Positions 1 through 19,046 of a stretch of 24,000 nucleotides of DNA are shown piece after piece (position 1 is the first letter of the stretch; each line of letters opens with the position of its first letter). Origin of the DNA: Spirochaetia bacterium (GTDB lineage Bacteria > Spirochaetota > Spirochaetia > CADAEX01). Below the pieces are notes generated by a model that worked only from the letters and a program-made list of their open reading frames with translations, ran no database searches and had not been told where the DNA came from. Both the position numbers and the translations under genes were made by a program. The stretch is taken from NCBI GenBank assembly GCA_017649605.1, contig JAGCGL010000062.1, positions 1 through 24,000 on the forward strand, written 5' to 3'.

Positions 1-363
1 ATCTCGCGGGCCAACCTGCGGCTTCAGACCGAGGACCGGCTCCGGGGATGCATAAACTCTCTGCGCCAGGTGCTGCTCCTTTCCGAGAGCAACCCCAAGT
101 ACATAGCCAACGGCGTGCGCCATACCCACGGCCTCTACAACGCTATCTTCCGTTCCATCCTGCGGCTTGTAGGCGAAGAGAAGATTGCATACACCTATGT
201 GGAGAACCTGAAGGCCGCATCCGAATATATCGACTTCAACCCTCAGCCTTTCAAGGATATCTGCCGCATTGCCAAGGATACCCCTATCGAAAGTGTGGTG
301 GTGGACCTGATTCTTGCACTGGTGAATATCGTGGACTTTGTGGATAAGCTGAATATAAAATGA
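1..363 (+). CDS. hypothetical protein, C-terminal fragment (5' end outside window)
   Basis: Frame +1 is open from base 1 to the TGA at 361-363. The track ORF 70..363 is only its GTG-initiated tail. The stop overlaps the next gene's ATG (ATGA at 360-363), which implies co-transcription. I recognised no family motif by eye. Confidence 0.5.
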   Translation: MSRANLRLQTEDRLRGCINSLRQVLLLSESNPKYIANGVRHTHGLYNAIFRSILRLVGEEKIAYTYVENLKAASEYIDFNPQPFKDICRIAKDTPIESVVVDLILALVNIVDFVDKLNIK

Positions 364-1133: not shown

Positions 1134-1146
1134 TTAAGGAGTTGAC

Positions 1147-1713: not shown

Positions 1714-2714
1714 GCCTTAATACTCCAGGAAACAGTTTTTCCTGCACAGAGGGGCACTATTCCGTCTGTCACAGCCGGGATGGTGCTCTCTTTTTTTATC
1801 AGCACCAGCTTCTCTTTTGCAGGCTTAAGACCATAGAACTTAGGACCGAATACTGATATGAAATTCTCAAGTTTTTTCAGCTGACCCTGCTGCTCAAAGA
1901 GCTCTGCCATAAGGGGCACTGCATAGGGGGAAGAGTAGATGCCACCCGCCGCCGCTCCAGACTCCTTCTTTGTCTTAAGGTGAGGTGCACTGTCGGAGCC
2001 GAAGAAGAACTTGCTGCTACCAGAGAATGCAGCCTGCTGAAGCGCATCCCTATCCTTGGGCCCTTTCACCACCGGCTTGCAGAAGGTGTGCGGATTCATG
2101 TTAGCCCCGATAACATCATCCAGGGTAAGGAGCAGATGGTGTGCAGTTATGGTGCCGGCTACTCTGTCAGGCAGAGATGCAACAAACTCTATGGAACGGC
2201 GGTCCGAAATATGCTCGAACACCATGCGTAAATCAGGGTATGCCTTGCAGATAGCGGCAAACTCACGGTGGTATTTGTATTCACGGTCAAGGACGAAAGC
2301 ATCGGGTTTCTCGCAGTGGATGGAGAGCACTAAGCCTAAGTCGCTCATGGCTCCCAGCGCCTCTTTTATCTGATGCCAGGAGGTCACTCCGTCCTCTGAA
2401 TTTGTGGTTGCCCCTGCAGGATAAAGCTTGCCTAAAAGGGCGCCGGCTTTTGCCATAGCCTTGACAGCAGAGGCGCTCATCCCAGGGTAGAGCTTGAAGC
2501 TCATAACAGGCTTGAAACCGGGGGCAAGGGAAAAAATCTCGTCACGGTAAGCGGCAAGACGTTCCGGCGTGTTTATCGGAGGCAGGGTGTTAGGCATAAC
2601 CACGGCCTGGGCAAACCACGCTGCAGCATCCCGGACTGTTGTCTTTAGCATAGCTCCCTGCCGCAGGTGCAGGTGCATGTCAGAAGGCTTACGGATAGCA
2701 ATCATTTTTTCCAT
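1710..2714 (-). CDS. pyrC: dihydroorotase (E. coli-type, class II)
   Basis: The 334-aa product is collinear with E. coli PyrC: 'IRKPSDMHLHLRQG' (HxH metal site), 'VVMPNTLPP', 'KLYPAGATTNSEDGVTS', 'VFEHI', 'CKPVVK', 'FFGSDSAPH', 'FYGL', 'VSWSIK'. Its stop codon (1710-1712) overlaps the lemA stop (1711-1713) by 2 nt. Confidence 0.95.
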   Translation of the reverse strand: MEKMIAIRKPSDMHLHLRQGAMLKTTVRDAAAWFAQAVVMPNTLPPINTPERLAAYRDEIFSLAPGFKPVMSFKLYPGMSASAVKAMAKAGALLGKLYPAGATTNSEDGVTSWHQIKEALGAMSDLGLVLSIHCEKPDAFVLDREYKYHREFAAICKAYPDLRMVFEHISDRRSIEFVASLPDRVAGTITAHHLLLTLDDVIGANMNPHTFCKPVVKGPKDRDALQQAAFSGSSKFFFGSDSAPHLKTKKESGAAAGGIYSSPYAVPLMAELFEQQGQLKKLENFISVFGPKFYGLKPAKEKLVLIKKESTIPAVTDGIVPLCAGKTVSWSIKA

Positions 2715-2773
2715 AATTCTTTTCCCTTTTCTTTAATATAAGTTTAAAGTATAATATTTGCAAGGAGCGGATA
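2715..2773. promoter_or_regulatory. divergent promoter region between pyrC and the 2774-13832 operon
   Basis: This 59-nt AT-rich spacer lies between divergent start codons. It contains TATAAT at 2750-2755, TAATAT at 2734-2739, and SD AAGGAG at 2762-2767 six nt before ATG 2774. The exact -35/-10 pairing and the TSS cannot be resolved by eye. Confidence 0.4.
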
Positions 2774-3748
2774 ATGGCCAATAAAACAGTTCTTGTTGTT
2801 CTTCCTGTGGAGGAGCGGCACAAAAAGCTTTTGGAATCGGCATACCCTGATGGAAAGTTCATCTACTGTCAGGAGAATTATCAGGAATATCTGAAGGAGG
2901 CCCAGATTCTGATCGGGAACATTCCTCCCGAGGAGATACAGCTGGGGAAAAAGCTTGAGTTCATCCAGACCAACAACGCTGGTGTGGAGCAGTACACTGT
3001 CCCCGGCGTGATCCCAGAGAACATCAAGTTCTGCTGCGCATCGGGCTGCTATGGCCTTGCAATCTCAGAATATATGATCGGCTGCGTCCTCTCCCTGATC
3101 AAGCATCTTAATGTGTACCGGGTGAATCAGCTGAACCACCAGTGGCTGGATGCAGGCCATGTGACCTCTATCTACGGAAGCAGGACTCTTGTAATTGGAC
3201 TTGGCGATATCGGCAGCGAGTTCGGGCAGAAGATGCATCTTCTGGGTAGCAAAGTGACAGGAATCCGCCGCCATACCGACGAGAAGCCCGACTGGCTCGA
3301 TGCAATCTATCCACTTGAGAAATTGGACGACATAATCGGCGATTTCGACATAGTCGCCCTCTCCATCCCCAACACAAAGGCAACTGCCCACCTTATGGAT
3401 CTGAACCGGCTTAAGAAGATGAAAAAGAGCGCAATCCTGATCAATGTGGGCCGGGGAAATGCAGTGGTGACAGCTGACCTGTGCAAAGCCCTGAACGAAG
3501 GGATAATCGCAGGTGCTGCTGTTGATGTGACAGACCCTGAGCCGCTGCCGCCGGAGAATCCGCTGTGGGATGCACCTAACATGATCATCACTCCGCATAC
3601 TTCGGGGCAGTACCATCTGCCTGAGACCCTGGAGCGGATAATCCGCCTTTCTGCCGAGAACCTTAAGGCATACACCACAGGTCAGCCGCTCAAGAGCATC
3701 GTTGATTTCAAGACTGGCTACAGATCTTTCGCAGAAAGGAAAAACTGA
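2774..3748 (+). CDS. D-isomer-specific 2-hydroxyacid dehydrogenase (NAD-dependent)
   Basis: NAD-binding site 'VIGLGDIGSEFGQK' (GxGxxG), 'ILINVGRGNAVVTADLCKAL', 'AAVDVTDPEPLP' and catalytic-His region 'ITPHTSG'. The substrate cannot be assigned from sequence. Confidence 0.85.
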   Translation: MANKTVLVVLPVEERHKKLLESAYPDGKFIYCQENYQEYLKEAQILIGNIPPEEIQLGKKLEFIQTNNAGVEQYTVPGVIPENIKFCCASGCYGLAISEYMIGCVLSLIKHLNVYRVNQLNHQWLDAGHVTSIYGSRTLVIGLGDIGSEFGQKMHLLGSKVTGIRRHTDEKPDWLDAIYPLEKLDDIIGDFDIVALSIPNTKATAHLMDLNRLKKMKKSAILINVGRGNAVVTADLCKALNEGIIAGAAVDVTDPEPLPPENPLWDAPNMIITPHTSGQYHLPETLERIIRLSAENLKAYTTGQPLKSIVDFKTGYRSFAERKN

Positions 3749-3750
3749 AG

Positions 3751-4899
3751 ATGAGCGCAAACCGAGTGGCTAATTCCGAGACAACTATCTTTACTGTGGT
3801 GAACACCCTTGCGGCCCAGTACAATGCAGTGGGCCTAAGCCAGGGGGCGCCTGACTTCGATACCCCACGCTGGGTGCTGGACATTATAAAAGAGGCCTTC
3901 GATGCAGGACGGAACCAGTATGCACCCATGTCAGGAGTCCCTGAGTTCAGGCAGGCAATAAGCGACATATACCGCACAAAGTATGGCCTTTCCTTCGATC
4001 CGGCCACACAGATCACAGTTACCAGCGGCGCCACCGAGGCTATATTTGACAGCGTATTAGCCCTGTGCGACCCGGGGGATGAGCTAATAGCATTCGAGCC
4101 TTTCTTCGATTCCTATGCCGGAAGCGCAAAGATGGCAGGATGCACCATGAAGGCTGTGACACTGCACCTGCCCGACTTCTCCTTTGACAGGAAGGAGCTG
4201 GAGGCAGCTATCACCCCCAGGACCAAGGCTATAATCATAAACAACCCGAACAATCCGACCGGAAAAGTCTATACAATGGAAGAGCTGACAGTTCTTTCCG
4301 AAGTGGCAAACAAGTACAATCTGACCATCATCAGTGACGAGGTATACGAGAACCTGGTGTTCGACGGACTTAAACATATTCCTACTGCAACAGTGCCAGG
4401 GTTGGCAGAGAGGACTATAACTATAAACTCCACAGCCAAGACATTCTCCGCCACAGGTTGGAAGATAGGCTATATCTGCACCACACCTGCGTTGACAGCT
4501 GCAGTTCAGGCAGTGCATCAGTGGGTGACATTCGCTGTCAACCACCCGATTCAGCTGGCATTCTCCAAGATTCTGCCAATCTCTGCCGAATATTCAAAGG
4601 AATTCTGTGCAGAGATGGAGAAACGGCGGGATTATTTACTTGCAAGGGCCAGCGAATGGGGCTTTGATCCGGTAAAGCCGGAGGGCTCATACTTCTTCAT
4701 GGCAACCTTCGACCGCCTTTCAAAGAAAAGCGACATGGATTTCATGGAGGAGCTTATAAAGACAAAACAGGTGGCACTGATTCCAGCATCACCTTTCTAC
4801 CTGAGCGCTGTTGATGAAGGACACAGGCTCCTGCGGTTCAATTTTGTAAAATCTATGGCAGCTTTGGAACAGGCTGACAAAAATATGAGGTCTCTATGA
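3751..4899 (+). CDS. class I aminotransferase, YbdL / kynurenine-aminotransferase-like
   Basis: Collinear with E. coli YbdL: 'TIFT', 'LSQGAPDFDTP', 'NQYAPMSGV', 'ITVTSGATEA', 'NNPNNPTGKVY', 'ISDEVYE', and the PLP-lysine motif 'NSTAKTFSATGWKIGY'. The ATG lies 2 nt after the upstream stop. Confidence 0.9.
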   Translation: MSANRVANSETTIFTVVNTLAAQYNAVGLSQGAPDFDTPRWVLDIIKEAFDAGRNQYAPMSGVPEFRQAISDIYRTKYGLSFDPATQITVTSGATEAIFDSVLALCDPGDELIAFEPFFDSYAGSAKMAGCTMKAVTLHLPDFSFDRKELEAAITPRTKAIIINNPNNPTGKVYTMEELTVLSEVANKYNLTIISDEVYENLVFDGLKHIPTATVPGLAERTITINSTAKTFSATGWKIGYICTTPALTAAVQAVHQWVTFAVNHPIQLAFSKILPISAEYSKEFCAEMEKRRDYLLARASEWGFDPVKPEGSYFFMATFDRLSKKSDMDFMEELIKTKQVALIPASPFYLSAVDEGHRLLRFNFVKSMAALEQADKNMRSL

Positions 4900-5414
4900 G
4901 CACACTGTTTATAAATGCCTGTATAAGGCCAGAATCCAGAACTCTTAAACTGGCAAAGGAACTCCTTTCCAAGCTGGAGAAGGAGACCGGAACACCTGCA
5001 GAAATTCTTAACCTGGAAGATGCAGACTTAAAGCCACTCAGCAACTCTGATATCGCCAGACGGGACAGAGCTTTGGCAGCCGGGGACTTCAGTGATCCTT
5101 TCTTTAAGTATGCAAAACAGTTTGCAGAAGCAGATATCATAGTTATAGCTGCCCCCTACTGGGACCTTTCCTTCCCTGCTCTGGTAAAGCTTTACTTCGA
5201 GGCTACATCAGTATGCGGCATCACATTCCGCTACACACCGGAGGGCTATCCTCAGGGGCTTTGCAAGGCAAAGAAGTTCTACTACGTGACTACTTCCGGC
5301 GGATTCATAGGAGACCTTGACTTCGGCTTCCAGTATGCAAAAGCCTTGACTACTAAACTTTATGGTATTCCAGATGTTGAGTGCATCAGAAAAGAGGGGC
5401 TGGATATTAAATGA
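4896..5414 (+). CDS. flavodoxin-like-fold FMN-dependent NAD(P)H oxidoreductase (AzoR/AcpD family)
   Basis: The 172-aa product is collinear with AzoR/AcpD: 'ADIIVIAAPYWDLSFPALVKLYFEATSVCGITFRYTPEG' and 'KKFYYVTTSGG'. ATGA overlaps occur at both ends (4896-4899 and 5411-5414). Confidence 0.8.
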   Translation: MSTLFINACIRPESRTLKLAKELLSKLEKETGTPAEILNLEDADLKPLSNSDIARRDRALAAGDFSDPFFKYAKQFAEADIIVIAAPYWDLSFPALVKLYFEATSVCGITFRYTPEGYPQGLCKAKKFYYVTTSGGFIGDLDFGFQYAKALTTKLYGIPDVECIRKEGLDIK

Positions 5415-6553
5415 CTTTTGATTTTAAAGTCAAAACACCTTGCTACATCATCGACACCGATATTCTTGCCGAGAATTTCAGGAATATAAAGAAAAAGGCC
5501 GATGGCGCCGGGCTTTCTCTTCTGATGGCGATGAAAGGGTTTCCCCTTCCAAAGGCATTTCCGTTTATCAAGCCTTTTGTGGATGGCATCTCCGCATCAG
5601 GGCTTTTTGAGGCAAAGCTTGGAAGCGACATGGGAAAGGAAGTGCATATCCACACCCCTGCTTACAAAGCAGAAGATGCTGAAGAAATCGCCTCTATCTG
5701 TTCCCACATTGTCCTGAATTCTCCACAGCAGGCCTCCATTTTCAGCCAGGCAGGCTCTAGGAAGAATCAATTTGCCCTGCGTCTTAATCCCCAGGTCAAT
5801 GCAGTAAAAGAGGCGGTCTACAATCCATGCGGCTCTTATTCACGCTTCGGGCTTACAAAGAACGCACTTGCAGAGGTAAAGCTTGACATCATGAATCGTA
5901 TCTCAGGCTTCCATATCCATGCCCTCTGCGGCAATTCTTCCCAGGATTTCAACAATCTGATCTCTGCGGTCATAGAAAAGTTTGCAGACTATTTACCATC
6001 TGTCTCTTGGATAAACTTAGGGGGCGGGCAGGCCTTTACAGAAGATGATTTTGACTTTGCCGATTTTCAGGAGAACCTGGATATTCTGCATACAAAATAT
6101 CATTTAAAGACCTATATTGAACCCTGTGAATATCTGGTAATGGAATCAGGTTTCCTGGCCGTTACAGTTCTGGATATTGTGCACAACGAAAAAGATATTG
6201 CAATTCTTGATACATCTCTTTCCTGCCATGCCCTTGATGTCCTTAAAAATTATTACCAGCTTCCTGTAGTCTTCCCAGAAGAGTGCAGCGGCAGAACGGA
6301 GCAGAAAACCTACAGCTACCTGCTTGCCGGAAACAGCTGCCTTGCAGGGGATGTATTCGGCGAATACACCTTTTCTGCCCCGCTGAAGCCTGGCGACAGA
6401 ATCATCTTCGGCGACATGGGCTCCTATTCCTTTGCACAGCAAAATTATTTTAATGGAATCAACTTCCCCGACATTGCTTTTTACAGTAGAATGTCTGGGA
6501 TAAAGCCCGTTAAAAGCTACACTTATGCAGAATACGAGAACATCTATGACTGA
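5411..6553 (+). CDS. nspC: carboxynorspermidine/carboxyspermidine decarboxylase-like PLP enzyme
   Basis: The 380-aa product is collinear with Vibrio-type NspC: 'TPCYIID', PLP-Lys region 'LLMAMKGF', 'DGISASGLFEAKLG', 'RLNPQVN', 'YSRFG', 'INLGGG', 'YIEPCEY', 'AGNSCLAGDVFG', 'YFNG'. Confidence 0.8.
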   Translation: MTFDFKVKTPCYIIDTDILAENFRNIKKKADGAGLSLLMAMKGFPLPKAFPFIKPFVDGISASGLFEAKLGSDMGKEVHIHTPAYKAEDAEEIASICSHIVLNSPQQASIFSQAGSRKNQFALRLNPQVNAVKEAVYNPCGSYSRFGLTKNALAEVKLDIMNRISGFHIHALCGNSSQDFNNLISAVIEKFADYLPSVSWINLGGGQAFTEDDFDFADFQENLDILHTKYHLKTYIEPCEYLVMESGFLAVTVLDIVHNEKDIAILDTSLSCHALDVLKNYYQLPVVFPEECSGRTEQKTYSYLLAGNSCLAGDVFGEYTFSAPLKPGDRIIFGDMGSYSFAQQNYFNGINFPDIAFYSRMSGIKPVKSYTYAEYENIYD

Positions 6554-7346
6554 GAAAGAAATAATTGAGAAAATGGTCGATGAATTTGTATGCGACCTTG
6601 GCTGCCCCTGCAACTGCTGTCTGGAATCGGCTGGCGGAATTATGCTTGACGGGGAATATGAAAAATATAAGAAATATGATGGAAAAAAACTTGTTGATGG
6701 CACTGTTTTCAACCTAAAGGAAATGGTTGAAGAAACAGAGGACGGGCTCCGGTTCAAGCAGGACAAAAATGGTGTCTGCATTCTTGTTAAGGACGGCAGG
6801 TGTCTTTTTCAATCAACTTTCGGCAGGAACGTACTCCATTATGAATGCCGGGAATATCCTAGGTGGACAATGCATTATAAAAGTCATGTGGAAAAAATGC
6901 TGTCTCCGGTATGTCCACATGTCACAGAGCTTTTCCTTAAGGACAATCTCTATTTCTGGGATTACATGACACAGGTGATTGAACCTGATCCAGATAATCT
7001 GTTTGAGGAAAGAAGACAGATTATTATGGTTTTGCGGGATGAAAACACAGCCCTGTCAGATGCCCTGGCCCTTCTTTGTTCCAGATACGGAATTGACCAC
7101 ACTTGTTCAGCCGGCATCTCCCTTTCCAAGGAAATCGAGGATATTTTGCGTCATCAGCTTGCCTGCACATTCTTCTGCGAGCTGCTCCAGAAGGGATATG
7201 ACAGAGAATATTTTGAATATACTGTTCCTTACTGTCTGAGCTCTGGTATTAAAATATATGATTATCTATGTGACATCGAGAATCTTAACCGCAACAATAT
7301 TGCGGTTCATTTTAACAAGGCCTGCTATAATGCCATACGGAAATGA
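6546..7346 (+). CDS. cysteine-cluster protein, YkgJ/CxxCxxCC (FliB-like) family
   Basis: There is an N-terminal Cys knot 'CDLGCPCNCC', then 'NGVCILVKDGRCLFQ' and 'HYECREYPR'. This mirrors the family pattern CxxCxxCC ... G-C-x-FL..dG-C-x-IY..RP..CR.FP. I prefer the start at ATG 6546 (8-nt overlap, ATGACTGA, with the nspC stop). An upstream ATG at 6525 is the alternative. Confidence 0.6.
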   Translation: MTEKEIIEKMVDEFVCDLGCPCNCCLESAGGIMLDGEYEKYKKYDGKKLVDGTVFNLKEMVEETEDGLRFKQDKNGVCILVKDGRCLFQSTFGRNVLHYECREYPRWTMHYKSHVEKMLSPVCPHVTELFLKDNLYFWDYMTQVIEPDPDNLFEERRQIIMVLRDENTALSDALALLCSRYGIDHTCSAGISLSKEIEDILRHQLACTFFCELLQKGYDREYFEYTVPYCLSSGIKIYDYLCDIENLNRNNIAVHFNKACYNAIRK

Positions 7347-7358
7347 TATGGGGAATCT

Positions 7359-7991
7359 ATGCTGACATTCAGAGCCGCCAGAAAAGAAGAACAGAAAGAA
7401 ATCTGCGAACTTTTTACAGATGCCTACATGGACTATGATTTTTTCATACCTCTCGAGAATAACCTTGACTGGCGGTGGAAATTTATCTATGAAGTTCATA
7501 TGCTCTCCATAAAGACAAACATAAAAAGAAGGCAGCTTTTTGTCGGGGAAGACGATGGACAGATTATTATGGGGTTTATATTTCAGGATCCTGAGAAAAA
7601 ACAACCTGGATTTCTTGATTACCTCTTTGCCGGTGCTGTACCTGCAATAATTAGGTCTGGGTTAAGCAAAATACTTTTATGGAACTCTATGGATGAACAG
7701 AGCGAAAAACCAATAAAACTTCTTATGAAAAATGAACCACATATATACTATCTTCAGGATCTTGCCGTCAGAAAGGATTCCCAGAAAAAGGGATACGGAA
7801 GCCGTGTCTTTAAGGACTTTCTGATTCCTTATATAAAAAATAAGGGCGGCGGCACCCTTGCCCTGATCACAAACTCCAAAAAAAATTACAATTTTTACTG
7901 CAGGCGAGGTTTTACCTGCTTTGAATCCAGCCAGTTTATGTGCAGAAACACTGCAATTGATAACTGGTGCTTTAGAATGGAAATCGTCTGA
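7359..7991 (+). CDS. GNAT-family N-acetyltransferase
   Basis: Motif A 'YYLQDLAVRKDSQKKGYGSRVFKDFL' (Q/RxxGxG/A acetyl-CoA loop) and motif B-like 'LITNSKKNYNFYCRRGF'. An SD-like GGGGA lies at 7350-7354. The acceptor is unknown. Confidence 0.75.
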   Translation: MLTFRAARKEEQKEICELFTDAYMDYDFFIPLENNLDWRWKFIYEVHMLSIKTNIKRRQLFVGEDDGQIIMGFIFQDPEKKQPGFLDYLFAGAVPAIIRSGLSKILLWNSMDEQSEKPIKLLMKNEPHIYYLQDLAVRKDSQKKGYGSRVFKDFLIPYIKNKGGGTLALITNSKKNYNFYCRRGFTCFESSQFMCRNTAIDNWCFRMEIV

Positions 7992-8030
7992 CTTATTGCT
8001 TTAACAGTAATATTAATATATATATAATAT

Positions 8031-9170
8031 ATGACTGACTATGAAATTGAGATGGAGCTGGACAGGGCAGTGCAAGATTGCCAGAAGCAAGGGTATCCTT
8101 CTGTAAATCTTTCTACCTGGAATTCAGGCTCTGAATATAAAGAACAGCTTAAAAACATCCTCAAACTTGACAACGGAATTGATATTTTTGACTATCAATA
8201 TTACTTCCAGGAGGATGCCAGGAAGAAATTGGCCTATAAACTGGGTTTCTCTGCCGAAGATTGCAAAAAAGAATTCTTTCATGCTCTTACACAAAGCACC
8301 CTTTCTATCGCGACTATTGCAGTTCTTCTTTCAAGAATGGAAACAAAGCTTGGGATAATCTCTCCCTACTATTTTTCTGTTCCAGACTGCTGTGATGACT
8401 TAAAGCTGCCATACACGATTTTTGCCGATTTTATGGAAGATATAAATGAATCTTTTGACGTAGATTTACTCCTGAAATCCGACTGTACTGCCTTTTGGTT
8501 CACTTCTCCGCTCAACTCCTGCAGCATCTATTTCGGCCAGCGGGTAACAGAAAGTATTCAAAAACTGCTGGATGCCGGGAAGCTGGTAATTTTAGACGAA
8601 TCCCTGTGCATAAACGGCAGGGAACTTTCCCGTACATTCGGCATACAGGAAAATCTTATTTATATCTACAGCCCCCATAAAGCACTTGGTATCCAGGGCA
8701 TAAAGTTCTCGGTCCTGGTAGCACACAAAAAATTCTATGATGATATTGACAGCCTGGGCGACAGTTATGGTGGCTCACTCAACTACTCATGCCAGCAGGG
8801 GTATTTTCATTTTATCTCGCCTAATTTTGATGAATGTATGACTGTGTACAACAAGTTCTGGCAGAAAAATCTTTCTGCTGCCAGACAGGTTCTGGCTTCT
8901 TACAGTTTTGCCTCTCTGTCAGCGGAGACTTATGGCCATTACGCTATGATTTTCATCGACAGCACACTTGATGACAGATGCTTTGTCGACGCCATGAAGC
9001 AGCTGATGAGGGAAAAAGGCTATTTTGTCTATCCCGGCGTTATGCAATGCTTTGACCCAAAACATCACTTCTGTTTCCGAATAAATCTGCTTTTAAACCG
9101 GACTGATCTAGAGCATGGGCTTAAAGCTGTCCTGGATTTTTTCAAAGATAACATAGGAGCAGACAGATGA
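8031..9170 (+). CDS. divergent fold-type I PLP-dependent enzyme (aminotransferase class I/II-like)
   Basis: 'IYIYSPHKALGIQGIKFSVLV' resembles the S-x-x-K PLP-lysine strand followed by G-x-(R/K)-x-(G/S). 'LVILDESLC' is an Asp strand. 'WFTSPLNSCSIYF' sits where NPxNPTG normally is. The C-terminus has 'FCFRINL'. This is a family-level call only. No SD precedes the ATG; the upstream 39 nt are almost pure A/T. Confidence 0.55.
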   Translation: MTDYEIEMELDRAVQDCQKQGYPSVNLSTWNSGSEYKEQLKNILKLDNGIDIFDYQYYFQEDARKKLAYKLGFSAEDCKKEFFHALTQSTLSIATIAVLLSRMETKLGIISPYYFSVPDCCDDLKLPYTIFADFMEDINESFDVDLLLKSDCTAFWFTSPLNSCSIYFGQRVTESIQKLLDAGKLVILDESLCINGRELSRTFGIQENLIYIYSPHKALGIQGIKFSVLVAHKKFYDDIDSLGDSYGGSLNYSCQQGYFHFISPNFDECMTVYNKFWQKNLSAARQVLASYSFASLSAETYGHYAMIFIDSTLDDRCFVDAMKQLMREKGYFVYPGVMQCFDPKHHFCFRINLLLNRTDLEHGLKAVLDFFKDNIGADR

Positions 9171-12118
9171 TTCCATTTCTACAACGATTATCAGAAGTTT
9201 CAGTAAAATATCCAAGCCGTCCGGCAGCCGTTGACCGTGATGGCGAGCGCTCAACAACCTATTCCCAGCTAAATGATTATTCAAGCCGGGTCGCTTCCTA
9301 CTTGCGGGCACTGGGCTTAAAAAAAGAAGACCTGATTGCCATAAAACTGGAAAAGTCCATGGAATATGTGGCGGTGCAACTGGGCGTGATGAAATGCGGC
9401 TGTGCCTTTGTACCGATTTCCGATGCAATGGGCCAGGAGCGTATAGAGCATGTGCTTGCCGACTCTGGCGCCAAATTTGTTTTTGATGCTGCACACTGGG
9501 ATAAGGCCATGGACTGCCACCCCCTGCCGGAAGCAGACTGGGCAGAAAGCGATGAGCACGACCTTGCGTTTATTATCTATACATCGGGAAGCACAGGGAT
9601 GCCCAAAGGCGTTGTGGAAGAATACGGAGCTTACCGCTTTATGGCAAAGGGCACTGCCGAGGAAGTGCTGGAGCCTTATACCATGCAGGATGACGCAATC
9701 CGCTTTGCAAATGTGGCACCGGTAACATTCTCTGCATTTACCATTATCAATGTGTGCATGGTCTGCGAAGCTTGGACTAACTATATGGTCTCGGGCGAGG
9801 TTGTCAGAAATCCGCTGCTTTATATGCAGTTCCTTAAAGAACACAGAATAGATGCAATGTTCCTGACTGCATCGCTGGTAAAGCCCCTTTCTGACAACGA
9901 GAGCCTTTCGCCAAAAGTTATATATCTTTCTTCCGAGCGGGTAAGCGATGTATACAGCTCAAGATTTGCAGTTTTGAACATCTACTGCAACTCGGAGCTT
10001 ATGTCCACCGCCTGCAATTTTGTTATCGATAAACCCTACTCAAACACGCCCATCGGTGCACACTGTTCCTATACAGACATGGTGCTTCTTGATAACGACT
10101 CCGTTTCTGAGAAAGAAGGGGAAATCTGCCTCCATCTTCCATTTTTCCGCGGCTACCTTAACCAGAAAGAAGAGAATGAGAAAGCTTTTGTTGTAATCGA
10201 TGGAAAAAAATTCTTCCGCACCAGAGACTTTGCCCGCCGGGGAGAAGACGGACTTCTGTATGTCCTGGGCCGGGCAGACGACATGGTTAAAATAAACGGA
10301 AACCGTGTAGAGCCGGCCGAAGTGGAGACAGCCCTTAAAAAAGTGCTGGAAACTAAGGTTGTGGCAGTAAAGGCATTTGAGAACAATGGCAAGTATTATC
10401 TCTGCGCCTATTATCAGAAAGAAGATACTGTTCCCGTAGAAGAAATCCGTGCTTCCCTAAAAACACTGCTTCCTGACTATATGATTCCATCCTATTATGT
10501 CCGCTTTGAGAAAATGCCCCTCAACACAAACGGGAAAATTGACAAAAAATCACTGGCACCACCAGCTTTTGAAGAGAATCATGCCGAATATGTGCCGCCG
10601 GAAACCGAGACACAGAAAATCCTCTGCTCTGCGGCCGAGGGGATTCTGGGAGATCTTTACAATGTGGGGAAAATAGGAATTGATGATGACCTGATACTGC
10701 TGGGCGGTGACAGTATATGCGCCATGAATCTGATAGCAGAATGCAAGACCCTTCCGTTGTCCGTTCCGCTGATTATTGGGAAGCGTACTGTGCGTGCCAT
10801 TGCAGAGGCGGTAGAGGCTCTAAAGGCCCAGAATTCCCATCCCGGACAGAAGATACATCTTACAAAAGCACCACTTAATGACATACAGCTGATTATGCTC
10901 CAGGACGATATCGCCTTCCCTGTAACAACAATGTTCAATCTGACGTATATAATCACTCTGCAGGACAATGTGGATTTAGGCCAGTTCGCCAAAGCTGTAA
11001 GAAAAGCTGTCTCTGCTCATCCTGCTCTTTTAAGCGTCATAGAGAAAGAGGGCAACATATACTATCTGCGTTACGAGCCCAGCTTTGACAAGGAAACTCC
11101 TGTGGAGACTATGAGCAATGACGAGCTAGCCGAGACCTTAAAACACTTTATAAGGCCCTTCCTGCTTGATGGAAGCCCCCTTTTCCGCACCCGGATTATC
11201 AGAACACCGGGGCAGAACGTTTTCCTTTTTGATGCATATCATGTCATTGCCGACGGAAATTCCATGGAAATTCTTATGGACGATATTGCCCGCAGTCTTC
11301 GTGGCGATTCCATTGGTAAAGACAAAATATTCCAGGAATTGCAGAAAGAGGCAGACTTTAAGAGCACCGGAACCTATTCCCAGGACAATGCATATTTCAA
11401 GGACCGATACGACAAGGACGGCTGGCATACACGACCACAGCCCGACTATGACACAGATAAGAATATCCTTGACACCATTACAGGCGATTTCCAGTTCTCC
11501 AAAGAGCGTGTTGCCGACCTATGCCGGAACTATGGGCTGGGGAAAAATGAATTCTATGCTGCGGCGGCTGCCCTTGCCATATCTATGTATAACAAGGTCC
11601 AGAATGTAATGCTGTCCTGGGTATGGAACGGCCGGGAAGCAGCCGCGGAACAGCGTTCTGTCGGGGTCTTCTACAAGGACTATCCTATTGCCTTTACTAT
11701 TGGAGATAAGACCAAGCTGAAGGATCTGCTTATGCAGGCAAAGGAGCAGGCGCTGGAGGGCATTGCCCATGGAAGCCTTTCCTATTTCGACAGACCAGGT
11801 CTTTACCAGGGGCATGATGTGTTCTGTCTTCTGTATCAGGGCGATATGTACAACTGCGACAAATACACCAGTTTTATGAAAAAGGCTGCCGAGTCCTTGG
11901 AGACAGATGAGTTCCCATGCGCCTGCGGCAATTCGCCGGAGCTTGAGATACTTGACAGCAGAACGGAATTCGGTTTTATCCTTGATTATAACGCAGCAGA
12001 GTACAAGAGTGAAAGCATGGAAAAGTTCCTGGGTCTCTTCACCAATTCCTGTGAAATGCTTTTAAAAGTAGAGGAAAATCCTGATATTGCAGTCGGAGAT
12101 ATAAAAAACTATGAGTAG
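9167..12118 (+). CDS. single-module non-ribosomal peptide synthetase, A-T-C
   Basis: 983 aa. A domain: A3 'YTSGSTGMPKG' (nt 9578-9610), A5-like 'NIYCNSE', A6 'GEICLHLPFFRGY', A7/A8 'FRTRDFARRGEDGLLYVLGRADDMVKINGNRVEPAEVE', A10 'NGKIDKKSL'. T domain: 'LLGGDSICAMNL' (Ser516, nt 10712-10714). C domain: C1 'APLNDIQLIML', C3 'AYHVIADGNSM' (His692, nt 11240-11242). There is no TE or R domain. SD AGGAG lies at 9155-9159, and an ATGA overlap links it to the upstream gene. Confidence 0.9.
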   Translation: MIPFLQRLSEVSVKYPSRPAAVDRDGERSTTYSQLNDYSSRVASYLRALGLKKEDLIAIKLEKSMEYVAVQLGVMKCGCAFVPISDAMGQERIEHVLADSGAKFVFDAAHWDKAMDCHPLPEADWAESDEHDLAFIIYTSGSTGMPKGVVEEYGAYRFMAKGTAEEVLEPYTMQDDAIRFANVAPVTFSAFTIINVCMVCEAWTNYMVSGEVVRNPLLYMQFLKEHRIDAMFLTASLVKPLSDNESLSPKVIYLSSERVSDVYSSRFAVLNIYCNSELMSTACNFVIDKPYSNTPIGAHCSYTDMVLLDNDSVSEKEGEICLHLPFFRGYLNQKEENEKAFVVIDGKKFFRTRDFARRGEDGLLYVLGRADDMVKINGNRVEPAEVETALKKVLETKVVAVKAFENNGKYYLCAYYQKEDTVPVEEIRASLKTLLPDYMIPSYYVRFEKMPLNTNGKIDKKSLAPPAFEENHAEYVPPETETQKILCSAAEGILGDLYNVGKIGIDDDLILLGGDSICAMNLIAECKTLPLSVPLIIGKRTVRAIAEAVEALKAQNSHPGQKIHLTKAPLNDIQLIMLQDDIAFPVTTMFNLTYIITLQDNVDLGQFAKAVRKAVSAHPALLSVIEKEGNIYYLRYEPSFDKETPVETMSNDELAETLKHFIRPFLLDGSPLFRTRIIRTPGQNVFLFDAYHVIADGNSMEILMDDIARSLRGDSIGKDKIFQELQKEADFKSTGTYSQDNAYFKDRYDKDGWHTRPQPDYDTDKNILDTITGDFQFSKERVADLCRNYGLGKNEFYAAAAALAISMYNKVQNVMLSWVWNGREAAAEQRSVGVFYKDYPIAFTIGDKTKLKDLLMQAKEQALEGIAHGSLSYFDRPGLYQGHDVFCLLYQGDMYNCDKYTSFMKKAAESLETDEFPCACGNSPELEILDSRTEFGFILDYNAAEYKSESMEKFLGLFTNSCEMLLKVEENPDIAVGDIKNYE

Positions 12119-13832
12119 TCAGTCAACATTCTTAAAAAGAAAATTTTTCTCGTTGCTGATACCTGGAACAATAAGCATGGTTGTAGTAACGCTGCTCCTG
12201 CTTTCGGATTCTGTGATTGCCGGCCTTATGCTGGGCCAAGATGCAGTTGCAGCCATAAGCCTTGTTACCCCGGCTTATAGCTTGGCTGCTTTTTTTGCCG
12301 GTATGATCGCAAGCGGCGTTCCCATTCTCTACTCAAAAGCTATGGGAGAGTTCAACAAAAAAGCAGCAGACCGCTATTTTGCGCTGGGATTTACATCAGC
12401 TATTGCCATAGGAATCATCCTGACCCTCGCCGCTTCTGTATTCGGAGACACCTACCTGCGTTCCTATAAAGCTTCCGAAGCAGTATTCAATCAAGCACAC
12501 GACTACTTTTTCTGGTATAAGCTAACCATTCTGCTCAGCGCGCTGAACATGCTTATCTCCGAGATGATACTGACCGACGGCGACGAGGCCCTGAGCCTTG
12601 TCTCAAGTTTAGTGCAGGTTGTGGGAAACATTGTACTTTCTGTTATCCTTGCCCACTTCTTCGGCATATCGGGAATTGCTTTCGCCTCTTTTGCAGGAAC
12701 TGCTGCTGCTCTTATTATTGCATCTGTCCATTTCCTCAGAAAGGCCAACTCCCTCAAAATAGGTTTTTTCTTTTCTTTCAAAGAGCTTCTTCCTGTAGTA
12801 AAATACAGCATAATCGATGCAGGCTCCTATCTTTTTCTTGCCTGCTTTACTGTTGGAATAGAGCATTTTATCATAGTAACCTATGGCCAAGAGATGCTGA
12901 TCCTGGCCTCTGTATTCCTGCTTGTAAAAGAGTTCCAGATGGTGTTTGACGGCATTGGAGAAGCTGTTACCCCGATTATGAATATTTATGTAGGAGAAGA
13001 ATCCTGTCCGGCAATCCGGAAATGCTACCGGCTTGCAAAAAAGGCAGCAATCATCGAAGGGTTTATTGTAACACTGGTTATATTAGCATTCTCGCCCTTC
13101 ATTGTAAAAATATATGGCATCGCAGACCCGGATATTGTAGGATTTGCCGACAAAGGGGCAAAAATTATTGCCCTGGGGCTTGTTCATATAAGTCTTTTGT
13201 ATTTGCTTACATCATACTACATTATAATCGACCGGATTCTGCTGGGCTTTGTCATCAGCGGCCTTCGGGATATGATTGTGGCTCTGCCTCTGTGTATGCT
13301 GTTTGGAAAGCTTTTCGGCATATACGGAATGTTTGCAGGCGGTGCCCTGGCTCCTATTGCAGCCTATTATCTTTCACTTCTTTTCGTGCGCATAAAATAC
13401 GGCAGAGAAAATACACCTCTTCTCCTTGCAGATCGGGAAAAATCTTTAAAAGCTGCTTTCTACGAGTTTACCATCACCCCAGAAGCAACTATCGCAGTTC
13501 AGAAGAACATAGGAGACTTCCTGCGGGCAAATAATGTGGACAGAAAGCTGATTGCAAAAACAGAGCTGCTTATCGAGGAGCTCTATATGCTGGTGTACGA
13601 GCGGAACAATAAAAAGCCTACAGTCTGTGCAGAATGTACAGCCCTTATCAGGGACGACGGCATTCAGATCATCGAAAAAGACGATGGCCTTTTGTTCAAC
13701 CTGACAGATGAGGATTCTCTGCCAAGCTCGCTGGGAGCTTTCGTGGTTGCAAGCTATATGGAAAAAATGCATGGAAACAAGATGTACCTTACCACAATGA
13801 GCTACAACCGCAATACTTTCAAGGTAAAATAA
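12111..13832 (+). CDS. MATE-family transporter fused to a C-terminal SpoIIAB/RsbW-like (GHKL, HATPase_c_2-like) domain
   Basis: 573 aa. Residues ~10-440 are polytopic, with a MATE-type N-terminus ('LLIPGTISMVVVTLLLLSDSVIAGLMLGQDAVAAISLVTP...GVPILYSKAMG'). Residues ~447-573 (nt ~13449-13829) are soluble and collinear by eye with anti-sigma kinases: 'ELLIEELYMLVYE', 'IQIIEKDDGLLFN', 'SLGAFVVASYMEKM'. The gene overlaps the NRPS stop by 8 nt. Confidence 0.8.
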   Translation: MSSQSTFLKRKFFSLLIPGTISMVVVTLLLLSDSVIAGLMLGQDAVAAISLVTPAYSLAAFFAGMIASGVPILYSKAMGEFNKKAADRYFALGFTSAIAIGIILTLAASVFGDTYLRSYKASEAVFNQAHDYFFWYKLTILLSALNMLISEMILTDGDEALSLVSSLVQVVGNIVLSVILAHFFGISGIAFASFAGTAAALIIASVHFLRKANSLKIGFFFSFKELLPVVKYSIIDAGSYLFLACFTVGIEHFIIVTYGQEMLILASVFLLVKEFQMVFDGIGEAVTPIMNIYVGEESCPAIRKCYRLAKKAAIIEGFIVTLVILAFSPFIVKIYGIADPDIVGFADKGAKIIALGLVHISLLYLLTSYYIIIDRILLGFVISGLRDMIVALPLCMLFGKLFGIYGMFAGGALAPIAAYYLSLLFVRIKYGRENTPLLLADREKSLKAAFYEFTITPEATIAVQKNIGDFLRANNVDRKLIAKTELLIEELYMLVYERNNKKPTVCAECTALIRDDGIQIIEKDDGLLFNLTDEDSLPSSLGAFVVASYMEKMHGNKMYLTTMSYNRNTFKVK

Positions 13833-13839
13833 TTTTTAC

Positions 13840-14706
13840 TTAATACACATCAAAGCTGCCCAGGTAGCGGAACTCAAAGCCACTTTTTCCAGTCAGCTTC
13901 TGATAGCTTTTATAAGAGCCGGCACATTCAATAAGGTAATAGTATTCGCCAAGCTCTGTCTTTCTTGGTCTGTCATGGATTGCGACCAGAGTCATTTTCT
14001 TCTTTTTCATCTCTGACATCAGCGACGGGAGATTGTCTGCTTTGCCAGTAGCTATGAAGGCAAGCCTCTGTGCTGGTTCTTCTGCTGGTGTATTAAGGGA
14101 AAGCACATAAAAGCGGGTCTTGTTCTTATTGCTGCTCTGGATACCGGGGGCAAGAATCTCAAGCCCGTACACATCAGCACAGGCTGCAGAGGAAATAGCC
14201 GCATAAGCTGGATCCTTCTTTTCTGAGACCAGCCGAGCCCCTTCTGCAGTGCTTGATACCTCGGTCACTTTTGCACCAGGAATGTTCTTTGTTAGCCATT
14301 CCCTCCCCTGGATGATGCCCTGCTTATGGGAGAAAACTTCTTTAATGTCACTAAGCTTTGTACCGGGAAGAGCCAGGAGGTTCTGGCTTATCAGGAGCTC
14401 AACCTCGCCGCAGACAGAGACCTCCTTGTTAGATATCAGAACATCGACATAATCAAGGACAGCGCCGCCTATTGTATTCTCCTGGGGAATCACCGCATAA
14501 TCGCATCTCCCCTCAACCAGAGCCTGAACTGCCTTGCTTACACTTTCAAATGGAATGAATGTTCCCTGCTTATCGAAGAAAACCTGGCTGGCTTCCTGGG
14601 AATAGGTGCCCTGCGGACCAAGATAACTTACCACCGGCTCTGCCTGGGCAGAGACAAATAAAGCCAGGCAGAGAACCAGCAGTATTAAAAGCTTTTTACT
14701 TCTCAT
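13840..14706 (-). CDS. pheA: prephenate dehydratase (PDT + ACT domains) with N-terminal signal peptide
   Basis: Signal peptide MRSKKLLILLVLCLALFVSAQA|EP. PDT domain: 'VSYLGPQGTYSQEA', 'DYAVIPQENTIGGAV', 'VFSHKQGIIQGREWL', 'AAISSAACADVYGLEIL', 'NKTRFYVLS'. ACT domain: 'LVAIHDRPRKTELGEYYYLIEC...FRYLGSF'. The start overlaps the upstream gene's stop by 11 nt. Confidence 0.85.
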   Translation of the reverse strand: MRSKKLLILLVLCLALFVSAQAEPVVSYLGPQGTYSQEASQVFFDKQGTFIPFESVSKAVQALVEGRCDYAVIPQENTIGGAVLDYVDVLISNKEVSVCGEVELLISQNLLALPGTKLSDIKEVFSHKQGIIQGREWLTKNIPGAKVTEVSSTAEGARLVSEKKDPAYAAISSAACADVYGLEILAPGIQSSNKNKTRFYVLSLNTPAEEPAQRLAFIATGKADNLPSLMSEMKKKKMTLVAIHDRPRKTELGEYYYLIECAGSYKSYQKLTGKSGFEFRYLGSFDVY

Positions 14707-17700
14707 CCTCGTAATCGATCAGCTCTGCCACACCTGGATTCTCTTTGTACCGTATGACATTGAGCATGAAGATGTTCAGCTTGTTGATGATGTTCGGCGG
14801 CAGCTGGTTGCCGTCAATCTCAATGGAGATAGCCGGATACTTGTTCTGCCGTGCATAAGGCATGTACAAGCCCTCGATGACACGTCCGATAAGGCATGCG
14901 AACGGCGAGATGTTGACAACACCAGAGTAGCCTTCTTCCATAGCTGTAGCTGCCGCACCGCTTGAGATAGAGATCTCGGAGTTAAGCTCGTAGCTTACAA
15001 ACTTGAGTGTGTTGGCCATAATCTTCTTCATGTCGTGCGGCGACTTAGGAATAAGACCGCATGGCTCCAGGGCCTCCCTTATCTTGGACTCGGTGCTCTC
15101 TTTCCATGCCTCTGCAAGCTTGAGGATCAGGAGCTTCTTGGTGTTCTCGCTGAATATCTTCTTATACCACGGGAATACGGTCCGCTCCCTCTTGAGGAAG
15201 TACTCCTGCACAAAGTCGGTGTAGTGGATCCATTCGCCAATGCCTGAGACCTTGGCTATGATACCCTTGTCAGCACAGGATCTGATAATCTCGTCCACTG
15301 CATAGTCGTCACGGCGGACATAGATCTCGCCCACAACCAGCACCTTCGGACACTTCTCTGGGTCTTTCTTCAGAGGAATTTTCTTTACACGTTCAGCAAA
15401 CACCTTGAGGGCAGGAACAATGTTCTTCCACCCTTTCTTGGCCTCTTCTAGCACATACTTCACACCATCGTTGACCTCGCTCATGGCATAGGCTCTGTCA
15501 ACAGCGCAGGTGCGCAGTGTTGTCTGGATATCCTTCAGGTAGTCGGCGGCGCAGAGTGCCCACCACATAATCTTGGAGAACCCTGCCCCGAGCTCTGAAT
15601 AGGAGTGGTCTGCGCTCAGCGTGAAGACAACCACATTCTCAAGCCGCAGGTCGCGGAACAGGTTCTGGTAGAAGACAAAGTACTGTCCTGTACGGCATGG
15701 TCCTGTTGTGATCGGGACAAAGATCATGTATGTTGTGCTCTTGTCGTACTTGTCAGATGCAAAGTACTCAAGCATCGAGCCTAAAAGCAGCAGTGATGGA
15801 ACACACTCCTTTCCTGATGCATGGTTCCGGGCAAAGCGCAGTGTGCGCGGTGTCGGAATAGGGACAGCCTCGGCATTGAAGCCCAGGGACTGCGCTGTGG
15901 CAGCCATGGATCTTGCAGAGATATCGCCCATGTTGGAGAGGAGAATCTTAACCTTCTTGTTGCCGCGGATCGCAATATCCTCCCCTGTGTGCTCGTTATG
16001 GAGATGTGGCTCGCTCTTTCCGTCGTTCACGAACCGGAGGCCGTTGTCATAGCGCTCCTCGTCCTTTCCACTGTACTTAAGCCGGTAGCCTTCGATAATA
16101 TCCAGGAATGCCTCCACACGGGTATCCACACCTGCGTCTGCAGAGTGGGAATCGAGCTCCAGCACCAGGAATGGCTTGGTCCCCATTATCCACTTAAGGT
16201 AGTGAAGCATGAATGAGTCCGGTGCGCAGGAGAAGTTGCTGACCCATGTGACAAAGATATTCGGGTTATCCTTCATATTGAAGGCTGTGTGCATATCCTT
16301 CTGGCCATAGTACCAGTACATGTTAGGGAATATCTTCTTGTCGCCTATCGGCAGGATATCGAACGGAATAACTGTGTTGCCACGGGATGTGAACTTCCGT
16401 GGAATACCGATGTTGGCCTCTTTCGCAAATGCGTTGTATGGCCGTCCAAGAAGCGCGATCACTGGCTGTGCCTGAGTCTTTGCATATTCAAGGGCTTCCT
16501 CGCCCAGCTTGAAGGCAGCCTCTTGGTATTCGTTCTGCTTCTTAAGAGCCACATTGAAGGCCTCTTTAGCCTCGGCCTCGGTGAATCCCAGCTTCTCGCC
16601 CAGCTGGATAAAGAACTCTACAGCCTTGTCCAGACCGGTTCTGAAGCTCACTACTGGAGAGAGAATCTTCTCCTCCGGAATCTCAGGGAAAGCCTTCTTG
16701 ATGTAATATGGCAGGCTCTGTGTTATAGGACAGAAGTTTGCGTGAATATCGCTCTCATGGCTCGGCATGTCGCGGTAATGAGGCAGCAGGATGTAATCTG
16801 TCTTTTTGTCCAGGATATCCTGCACTGCTCCGTGGGCAATCTCTGCAGGGAAGCAGTAGGTGGACTCAACCCTTGCGACGCCGGAGTGCGGCACATTTTC
16901 GGAAAGGACTGTCTTAATACCCAGCTGGTGGAAGTACCAAGCGTAGAAGGGGTAGAGCGTATAAACAGAGAAGGCCTTCGGAATGCCCACAGTGTAATCC
17001 CGCTTCTTAACAAAGCTGGCCTCGTCCGGAGCAAATGTCTTGAACATAAGGTCGTTACGCTCATCCACAAAGTTGCGGATCTTGGACTCGTCGAACAGCT
17101 TCTTCTTGCGTGAGTTGGTGTACTTTGAGCACCGACCGCCGAACATATACTTGTTGCCGTTCACCTTGAGGATGCGGATAGGACACTGGTTCTCGCAGGA
17201 TTTGCACTTGAACTCGCTCTCGTAGATGATCTCTGTCTCGAGAATCTTGTCGATGTCGAAGGTGGCCTTGGAGATGAGCCCCTCCTTGAACTTCTGCTTT
17301 GCCAAAAGACCTACGCCGAAGCATCCCATGAGCTCAGGATCTGGCGGAACCAGAATCTCCTTGCCCAGAAGGAGTGCGAATGCCAGAGGGATAGCCTTGT
17401 TCTTGGCCACGCCGCCCTGGAGGAATATCTTGTTGCCCACAGTCCTGTTTCCGACAACTCTGTTCAGGTAGTTGGAGACAATGGATGTGACAATTCCTGT
17501 AGTTATATCAGCCCGGGTCGCACCCTGCTGGATAGCTTTTCTGATATCTGAGTTGATGAATGCAGAGCAGTGCTCGCCGAACTTGAGAGGGTTCTCTGCC
17601 TCAAGGGCAATGTCACCGATCTCCCAGGCGTGTGCAATGTTCAGGTCGCCGGATGCCGATTCCTCGAGGAAGGAGCCTGTACCTGCAGAGCAGGCCTCAT

Positions 17701-18973: not shown

Positions 18974-19046
18974 TGAGAACTCCTTATATAGGTATTAGCC
19001 TATCTATAATAGTGTACTCTTATTATTATTTTTAAACAAGATATAT

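Follow-up and report, generated by a model that had tools for sequence, protein, structure and literature searches.

The window analyzed here is a 24,000-nucleotide stretch of DNA from a Spirochaetia bacterium (contig JAGCGL010000062.1 of assembly GCA_017649605.1, positions 1 to 24,000 of the forward strand), whose genome is represented by a 1.79-Mb assembly that is 92.7% complete. Our subject is a nonribosomal peptide synthetase (NRPS) gene within it that encodes a single adenylation-thiolation-condensation (A-T-C) module. This is a real and intact gene. Its ATG overlaps the stop codon of an upstream gene for a pyridoxal phosphate (PLP) enzyme (ATGA) and is preceded by an AGGAG 8 nt upstream, and its final codons overlap the start of a gene for a MATE exporter (Table 1). 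A Pfam scan of the 983-residue product placed AMP-binding at residues 12–331, PP-binding at 489–549 and Condensation at 566–973, and detected no thioesterase (TE), reductase (R) or second T domain. The A domain scored 158 bits against PF00501 and 199.7 bits against TIGR01733, the latter below the cut-off of 317, and has the core motifs A3 (YTSGSTGMPKG, residues 138–148), A7 (FRTRD, with D354), A8 (GRADDMVKINGNRVEPAEVE) and A10 (NGKIDKK, with K457). The carrier domain gave a weak match to PF00550 (19.8 bits, just under the cut-off of 20.8), and the corresponding region (residues 481–555) was modeled as a helical bundle by AlphaFold2 (AF2). The complete AF2 model, built from 63 homologues, had a mean predicted local distance difference test score (pLDDT) of 85.9, and its best Foldseek matches were LgrA constructs spanning A-T-C and a DhbF cross-module structure.

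Table 1. Positions of the synthetase gene, its domains and motifs, and neighboring features in the window.
Feature	Position (nt)	Strand	Remarks
A-T-C synthetase gene	9167..12118	+	one unbroken open reading frame, 983 aa
Adenylation domain	9200..10561	+	aa 12 to about 465; placed by Pfam, HMMER and motifs
Thr187, GrsA Asp235 position	9725..9727	+	HMMER against LgrA, MAFFT against EntF, family counts
A5 motif NIYCNSE	9977..9997	+	aa 271-277; Cys274-Asn275 in place of the Gly-Pro of NxYGPTE
Thiolation domain	10631..10813	+	LGGDSI; Ser516 at nt 10712-10714
Terminal condensation domain	10862..12085	+	aa 566-973; PF00668, 103.7 bits
C3 motif YHVIADG	11237-11257	+	aa 691-697, inside the condensation domain
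Accessory island	5343..14694	.	defined by absence from same-genus genome G145
NspC-like PLP decarboxylase	5411..6553	+	first island gene; only nspC-like gene in the genome
FliB/YkgJ-like Cys-cluster protein (CxxCxxCC)	6525-7346	+	low-GC insert
GNAT acetyltransferase	7359-7991	+	low-GC insert
Divergent fold-type-I PLP enzyme, 379 aa	8031..9170	+	Lys in 'SPHK'; translationally coupled to the NRPS gene
MATE exporter, 573 aa	12111..13832	+	PF01554, NF007130

The original prediction held that the A domain lacks the Asp that binds the substrate alpha-amino group (Asp235 of GrsA), and that Ser189 (nt 9731–9733), in the string VTFSAF at residues 186–191, takes its place. The string lies where it was reported and the Asp is indeed missing, but the register was off by two residues. 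HMMER paired the FDGS of LgrA with VTFS of the window protein, and a MAFFT L-INS-i alignment paired VTFS with the FDVS of EntF (the A domain of Escherichia coli EntF, taken from NC_000913.3). Ser189 is thus the Ser of FDxS, two residues past the Asp235 position, which is occupied by Thr187. No acidic residue was found across the stretch RFANVAPVTFSAFTIINVCMVC surrounding it. The unrelated single-module A-T-C proteins P0211, P0243 and P0244 from the same database, used as controls, showed canonical FSFDVS and YGPTE motifs in the same kind of alignment. EntE fell out of register in the MAFFT alignment with EntF. To assess conservation, we aligned 118 homologues from three phyla (Spirochaetia/Treponema, Fibrobacter and Butyrivibrio; identities down to 36%), from which the residue counts below derive. 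Position 235 is Thr or Ser in 115 of these relatives and Asp in none. The ten-residue specificity code was read by anchoring on EntF, whose own code we take to be DVWHFSLVDK. With the ten position numbers and the GrsA code as given in PMC11355689, the code of the window protein is T187 F188 F191 M231 Y253 S255 I272 S280 T281 K457, and the pocket residues that it comprises (F, F, M, Y, S, I, S and T) are all uncharged.

The second departure is in motif A5, which reads NIYCNSE, as had been noted. In the HMMER alignment Asn275 falls on P483 of LgrA, the A5 proline (numbering as in 9be3). Loss of this proline is known to govern selection of alpha-keto acids: StsA, a keto-acid domain, has Ile at the site of the Asp that contacts the alpha-amino group and Met at that of the A5 Pro (PMC11253843, section 2.5), the M415P substitution abolishes adenylation by StsA, and P483M and P483A raise the activity of LgrA on alpha-ketoisovalerate (PMC11253843). 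Judged from its aligned residues, then, the A domain has lost both features used for alpha-amino-acid recognition, having no Asp at 235 and no Gly-Pro in A5. Comparison with both LgrA and EntF thereby upholds the predicted absence of Asp and adds a second lost hallmark to it. The loss of both indicates, and does not prove, a substrate without an alpha-amino group. The StsA-type pattern is matched only in part: residue 235 is not Asp and the A5 residue is not Pro, but 235 is Thr rather than Ile or Val and the module has no ketoreductase domain. The aryl-acid pattern of DhbE and EntE is absent, with Thr at 235 rather than the Asn of an HNY-type motif and no EntC/B/A-type genes in the surrounding accessory island.

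The C domain retains the residues expected of an active enzyme. Its C3 motif, YHVIADG, keeps the catalytic second His as predicted, and His692, Asp696 and Gly697 are conserved in 115, 117 and 118 of the 118 relatives, respectively. The first position of the motif is variable (His in 51, Tyr in 49 and Cys in 13). In the fungal A-T-C enzyme AneB this residue is Gln, and the Q793A and Q793H variants are active, whereas activity is lost in H794A and D798A (PMC10720950); a motif reading YHVIADG could therefore still support catalysis. The subtype of the C domain was judged from a ranking of Protein Data Bank (PDB) profile matches. A profile of 11 family members best matched the C domains of BacC (E 8e-43), TycC, PvdL and LgrA, and VibH was not among the 59 PDB matches; the domain thus resembles C domains of the usual elongation type, although it sits at a terminus.

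This C domain is the only one in the whole genome, in which no PF00975 thioesterase was found either, and the most economical interpretation is therefore that the C domain itself releases the product. The prediction of an A-T-C protein with no TE, R or second T domain and with the terminal C domain as its only release route agrees with these results. There are precedents for such chemistry: C-domain off-loading onto putrescine is documented for the glidonins (PMC10587159), and single A-T-C enzymes such as AneB can release their products onto small nucleophiles (PMC10720950). Also as predicted, no gene for a phosphopantetheinyl transferase (PPTase) or an MbtH protein lies within the window; no MbtH was found in the rest of the genome either. 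The sole genomic PF01648 PPTase, an Sfp-type protein of 199 residues, is encoded at ~49.2–49.8 kb on the same contig, about 25 kb downstream. A link between the NRPS and this PPTase or its MMPL neighbor was considered and rejected because the PPTase sits in an aryl-polyene-like cluster (contig C82:43945-56784, L041) containing an O-methyltransferase, two ketosynthases, a ketoreductase, ApeP-like and ApeI-like dehydratases and an MMPL protein, along with LolA-like, lipid-A-type acyltransferase, GT2 and AMP-ligase genes.

A search of 5.8 billion protein clusters recovered a coherent family of A-T-C proteins of ~965–997 residues. The A3 core (YTSGS-G), the A7 Asp and most of A8 are invariant or nearly so among the 118 homologues, and the A10 Lys (K457) and carrier Ser516 are each conserved in all of them. 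Members at least 47% identical to the window protein (subfamily A) come from Spirochaetia metagenome-assembled genomes, Treponema and Fibrobacter-type contigs. They share V-T-F-x-x-F, Met 278, Ser 301, Ser-Thr 330/331 and Cys-Asn in A5, with the consensus code T F F M (M/A/Y) S L S T K; Thr187 is kept in 52 of 53 members and the Cys-Asn in 49 of 53. Subfamily B, at most 42% identical, includes Butyrivibrio sp. AE2015 among other contigs; it has (E/Q)-(S/T)-(F/Y) with Gly at 239, and its A5 mostly contains Gly-Pro or Gly-Ser. A third, small subfamily (C), known from Fibrobacter (sp. UWH4; locus L040), shares no more than 25% overall identity with the window protein but keeps P-(F/I)-T-F-x-x-F; its A5, GYG(T/A)TE, also lacks the proline. 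Because the catalytic residues are conserved over the 118 homologues and the deviant ones within subfamily A, the alignment indicates that the A-T-C protein is under selection and not decaying. No characterized member was found in the literature on the family, on Fibrobacter and Treponema NRPSs or on bacterial A-T-C enzymes, and a plasmid collection returned generic NRPS matches only (at most 28% identity). Cultured carriers include Fibrobacter sp. UWH4 and Butyrivibrio sp. AE2015, whereas the name F. succinogenes is attached only to a cluster of the partner PLP enzyme.

DNA comparison with two same-genus genomes delimited the region to which the synthetase gene belongs. In one of them (G145, 99% complete), window positions 13–5342 and 14695–18985 adjoin each other, with the flavodoxin-like gene followed after 12 bp by a convergent gene for a 1425-residue activase/dehydratase. 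Since G145 joins the two flanks directly, the intervening segment is an accessory island. G145 also lacks the NspC-like gene, the PLP enzyme and a stand-alone A-T paralogue described below. The NRPS was present in 2 of the 401 Spirochaetota genomes sampled, namely that of the window and one congener. In the fuller form of the island (G245, L006, L007 and L009) the gene order is NspC-like, PLP enzyme, NRPS, STAS, MATE, SpoIIE-type phosphatase, HATPase_c_2 kinase, a 184-residue membrane protein and prephenate dehydratase. STAS, SpoIIE and HATPase_c_2 are missing from the island in the window and in L008, the relative closest to it. The genes upstream of the island for a 2-hydroxyacid dehydrogenase, a YbdL-like aminotransferase and a flavodoxin-like protein were considered as suppliers of the acid and rejected, as they occupy the same place in the island-free G145. 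They are part of the chromosomal backbone outside the island, and all three are absent from every Fibrobacter, Treponema and Butyrivibrio locus. The island-free sister genome thus corrects an attractive but unsupported link to neighboring 2-oxo/2-hydroxy-acid genes. About 4.5 kb upstream of the operon, on the neighboring contig, lies a gene for a stand-alone A-T protein, P0122 (540 residues; contig C83:13736-15343, L012:1501-3123). This paralogue is 32% identical to the A-T-C enzyme and shares its KINGNRVEPAE motif, and it has Asn at 235 and NLFTMGE as A5.

Two PLP enzymes are encoded in the island. The coupled one directly precedes the NRPS gene, with translational coupling, in every subfamily A and C locus except Treponema L001 and is absent from all four subfamily B loci as well as from genomes G401 (Treponema), G402 and G403; it accompanies only those NRPS forms that lack the A5 proline. 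Its family is narrow (52 clusters, all at least 55% identical). The only PDB sequence matches were aspartate beta-decarboxylases and CobD, and these were weak (E 0.0075). A structure search with its model was equally generic, giving TM-scores of ~0.65–0.7 to many aminotransferases, MppP, GntC, CcbF and CobD-type decarboxylases and no specific neighbor. The NspC-like decarboxylase matched 9eaf of the carboxy(nor)spermidine decarboxylase family (E 4e-84). It scored 343.8 bits against TIGR01047, below the equivalog cut-off of 409, as did its counterparts at other loci (343–347 bits), while Butyrivibrio-type genomes encode a true NspC elsewhere (442–448 bits). The gene is found in the window and in L003, L006, L007, L009, L020 and L021. 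No carboxynorspermidine synthase (CANSDH) was detected in the genome of the window, where the only saccharopine-dehydrogenase-like gene scored 20 bits (cut-off 800) and is also present in the island-free G145. Given the sub-threshold score and the missing CANSDH, the NspC-like decarboxylase does not perform its textbook role here. We likewise rejected it as a housekeeping spermidine gene: it is island-specific within the genus, falls below the equivalog cut-off and has no CANSDH partner, and the true NspC of Butyrivibrio-type genomes is encoded at another site.

The most constant neighbor of the synthetase gene is the exporter. Each of the 12 contexts read, which span at least three phyla and come from related genomes and metagenomic contigs rather than independent samples, has a gene for a MATE protein of 550–595 residues adjacent to the synthetase gene. 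These proteins carry a C-terminal cytoplasmic domain of ~130 residues (431–573 in the window protein) that weakly matches HATPase_c_2, the anti-sigma kinase domain (E 0.009), and that is kept in every MATE accompanying the A-T-C family, down to 26% identity. STAS and SpoIIE genes, with or without HATPase_c_2, were found in L003, L004, L006, L007, L009, L020, L021, L022 and L040. The STAS, SpoIIE-type PP2C and HATPase_c_2 proteins encoded beside the MATE in these relatives suggest an exporter gated by a partner switch. The window MATE is 89% identical to that of L008, 56% to that of L006 and 58% to a Fibrobacter-type MATE, and yet the L006 NRPS is 77% identical to that of the window; these identities suggest an exchange of the exporter gene within an island of mosaic origin. 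A trio of DUF1329/TP_0789-like, MMPL and DUF1302 genes is found no more than a few kb from the cassette at four Treponema and Fibrobacter-type loci (L001, L004, L020 and L040), which could reflect shared synteny or a functional link to envelope export.

From these features we infer an acid class, an amine acceptor, roles for both PLP enzymes and a route of export. In the scheme that we propose, and whose chances of being correct we put at about even, a hydrophobic acid without an alpha-amino group is loaded, the terminal C domain joins it to a free amine, and the resulting product is exported. Ser516 of the T domain would be primed in trans by the single Sfp-type PPTase of the genome, and the A domain would adenylate and load the acid, probably a medium-sized hydrophobic 2-oxo, 2-hydroxy or plain acid. 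The C domain, via His692, would then move the acyl group from the carrier in cis onto a nucleophile in solution; this is most likely a primary amine, so that an amide results, and the cationic or amphipathic product would leave through the co-conserved MATE pump. The coupled PLP enzyme probably prepares one of the substrates, for instance by converting an amino acid to a 2-oxo acid; such a deamination would fit because the enzyme correlates with the missing A5 proline. The amine half is probably made or completed by the NspC-like decarboxylase, which could act on an N-omega-substituted diamino acid, be it ahead of the acylation or following it. The additional GNAT and FliB-like genes of the window belong to amine-modifying families and would further modify an amine. 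A bolder extension, which we offer only tentatively, is that the cassette, with its private PLP enzyme, its A-T-C module devoid of both alpha-amino hallmarks, an off-pathway NspC-like decarboxylase and a MATE pump, constitutes a previously unrecognized pathway of rumen and gut anaerobes making an alpha-keto-amide or acyl-diamine metabolite whose export is gated by protein phosphorylation. The product would then be a reactive or cationic signal or inhibitor with a role comparable to that of the gut dipeptide aldehydes, a notion that we regard as somewhat doubtful, and it is possible, though we would not favor it, that the extra cytoplasmic domain of the MATE pairs with the STAS and PP2C partner-switch genes.

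Several observations weigh against amide formation from such an acid. Pfam found no ketoreductase (KR) domain in the module, whereas keto-acid modules normally carry one, and we know of no specificity code with Thr at position 235. The C-domain profile lies nearest to elongation- and epimerization-type domains, not to VibH or starter domains, and off-loading onto an amine is not indicated by its sequence. The accessory enzymes are not constant either: the NspC-like gene is absent from L001, L004 and L040, and the PLP enzyme from Treponema L001. The co-occurrence counts are also weakened by the relatedness of the genomes and contigs from which they were drawn. Finally, a distant member of the family (37% identity) and its MATE lie inside a polysaccharide locus (L024:1-18910) containing WbsX- and STM0557-type glycosyltransferases, NeuB, a Wzx-type flippase and a CMP-sugar synthetase-type gene, a setting which hints that some members act on glycans.

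Other schemes can be drawn from the same genes. The A domain might load an amino acid bound in a non-canonical way, such as a beta- or omega-amino acid or Asp or Glu activated at the side-chain carboxylate, with the C domain coupling it to a diamine through an iso-peptide-type amide and the NspC-like enzyme removing the alpha-carboxylate. An N4-aminoalkyl-asparagine is nearly isosteric with carboxyspermidine. In favor of this scheme, the NspC-like enzyme is a strong structural-family match and has no dehydrogenase partner to make the usual substrate. The aspartate beta-decarboxylase and CobD matches of the PLP enzyme also point this way, as do the Glu or Gln one residue before position 235 in subfamily B and the SDF-family amino-acid/dicarboxylate carriers adjoining the gene in L001 and L023. 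However, the subfamily A pocket has no charged or strongly polar residue for a distal head group, loss of the A5 proline is documented as a signature of keto-acid and not beta-amino-acid selection, and the SDF neighbors lie outside the PLP-enzyme-bearing loci of the subfamily of the window. We therefore consider this arrangement unlikely, in its loading step as in its condensation and decarboxylation steps. A two-protein assembly line, in which P0122 carries the acceptor or a second donor and the C domain condenses two carrier-bound units, is less probable still. It draws on the paralogy of P0122 with the A-T-C enzyme, down to the same A8 motif, on its co-variation with the island in the genus (present in G245, G404 and G405, absent from G145) and on L022, which has a separate AMP-binding gene and an 89-residue reading frame. 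On the other hand, P0122 orthologues were found only in island-bearing genomes of the genus of the window, and are absent from the Treponema and Butyrivibrio-type carriers of the A-T-C gene, so P0122 cannot be a general partner. Moreover, no second A-T gene lies within 8–10 kb in the Fibrobacter-type loci, P0122 is separated from the operon by backbone and opposite-strand genes, and a product held on a second carrier would need a release enzyme, of which none was found.

The C domain might instead acylate a hydroxyl or amine of an envelope glycan or lipid in a Dlt-like manner, the MATE/MOP-type protein handling that acceptor. The L024 setting and the DUF1329-MMPL-DUF1302 genes near four of the cassettes would be in keeping with this, and DltA is among both the structural and the sequence neighbors of the A domain. 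The transporter, though, matches the true MATE efflux models PF01554 and NF007130, the island of the window is free of genes for glycans or lipids, its accessory enzymes are PLP enzymes of small-molecule type, and the MMPL neighborhood may be plain Fibrobacter synteny; we give envelope decoration only a slim chance. It is very improbable that the module is simply decaying and inactive. The A5 and C3 motifs are off consensus, the PP-binding match falls under the Pfam cut-off, and the lineage of the window has lost the STAS, SpoIIE and HATPase_c_2 genes of its relatives. But the reading frame is intact, every catalytic residue is conserved over the 118 homologues, the deviant residues are themselves maintained within subfamily A, and the AF2 model is confident.

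By sequence, the window protein falls outside the VibH, aryl-acid and alpha-amino-acid groups and shares the keto-acid pattern only in part. Its nearest counterparts by function are the amine-off-loading C domains of VibH, glidonin and bacillamide, the fungal A-T-C releasers AneB and ThmA, and the keto-acid A domain StsA. The synthetases for cereulide (StsA/CesA) and valinomycin (Vlm), represented by PDB 6ULX, resemble it in having a non-acidic residue at 235 and a replaced A5 proline. They differ in that these residues are Ile/Val and Met rather than Thr and Cys-Asn, and in that their A-KR-T modules belong to large iterative synthetases with ester-forming C domains, whereas the window module stands alone without a KR. 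The vibriobactin system (VibH) and the termination module of the glidonins (PMC10587159) each use a C domain to transfer an acyl group from its carrier to a free di- or polyamine, and an NspC-family decarboxylase is part of the amine-supply logic in Vibrio. VibH, however, is a free-standing C domain acting on DHB-S-VibB (DHB, 2,3-dihydroxybenzoate), while the C domain of the window is fused after A-T and has no aryl-acid genes nearby. The fungal enzymes AneB, ThmA and FlvI (PMC10720950) have the same A-T-C order, with a C domain that selects a small free nucleophile and releases the product, and the first residue of their HHxxxDG motif is likewise not His (QHxxxD) and is dispensable. Their substrates, however, are canonical amino acids, which they esterify with terpene alcohols, and they have no sequence kinship to the window protein beyond the domain families. 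Bacillamide biosynthesis combines terminal C release with a clustered PLP decarboxylase (BmdA) that can provide an amine acceptor. Its NRPS, BmdB, is multimodular (A-T-Cy-A-T-C), loads Ala and Cys and matches the window protein only through the A and T regions, and BmdA belongs to another fold family. A precedent for acylation of a diamino acid followed by its decarboxylation is provided by Francisella rhizoferrin, in which FslA is followed by the N-citrylornithine decarboxylase FslC, an enzyme of the ornithine/diaminopimelate/arginine decarboxylase fold. FslA differs in being an NRPS-independent siderophore (NIS) synthetase, and the decarboxylase of the window, which matched FslC weakly (26 bits), is far closer to NspC.

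Release onto a free nucleophile by synthetases of a single module is already known, and what the present family adds is an unstudied group spread over the Spirochaetia/Treponema, Fibrobacter and Lachnospiraceae of the rumen and gut. The conserved Thr at 235 and Cys-Asn at A5 could extend the rules of specificity predictors for non-amino-acid substrates. If the product does prove to be an acyl- or keto-acyl-amine whose export is controlled by a partner switch, it would represent a new class of rumen metabolite with an ecological role.

The island of the window has a few further peculiarities. The segment between the NspC-like and PLP-enzyme genes that carries the FliB-like and GNAT genes is a low-GC insert (6563–8027, GC ~0.40–0.43) that is absent from G245, L006, L007 and L009. 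At the other end of the island, a prephenate dehydratase gene on the reverse strand (13840–14706) lies within the stretch missing from G145 and so travels with the island in the genus; it is not found near the cassette in other phyla. The best sigma-70-like site in the operon region (8001–8028; TTAACA, a 16-nt spacer and TATAAT, with 11 of 12 matches) is located at the right edge of the FliB/GNAT insert, its last base lying 3 nt ahead of the PLP-enzyme ATG.

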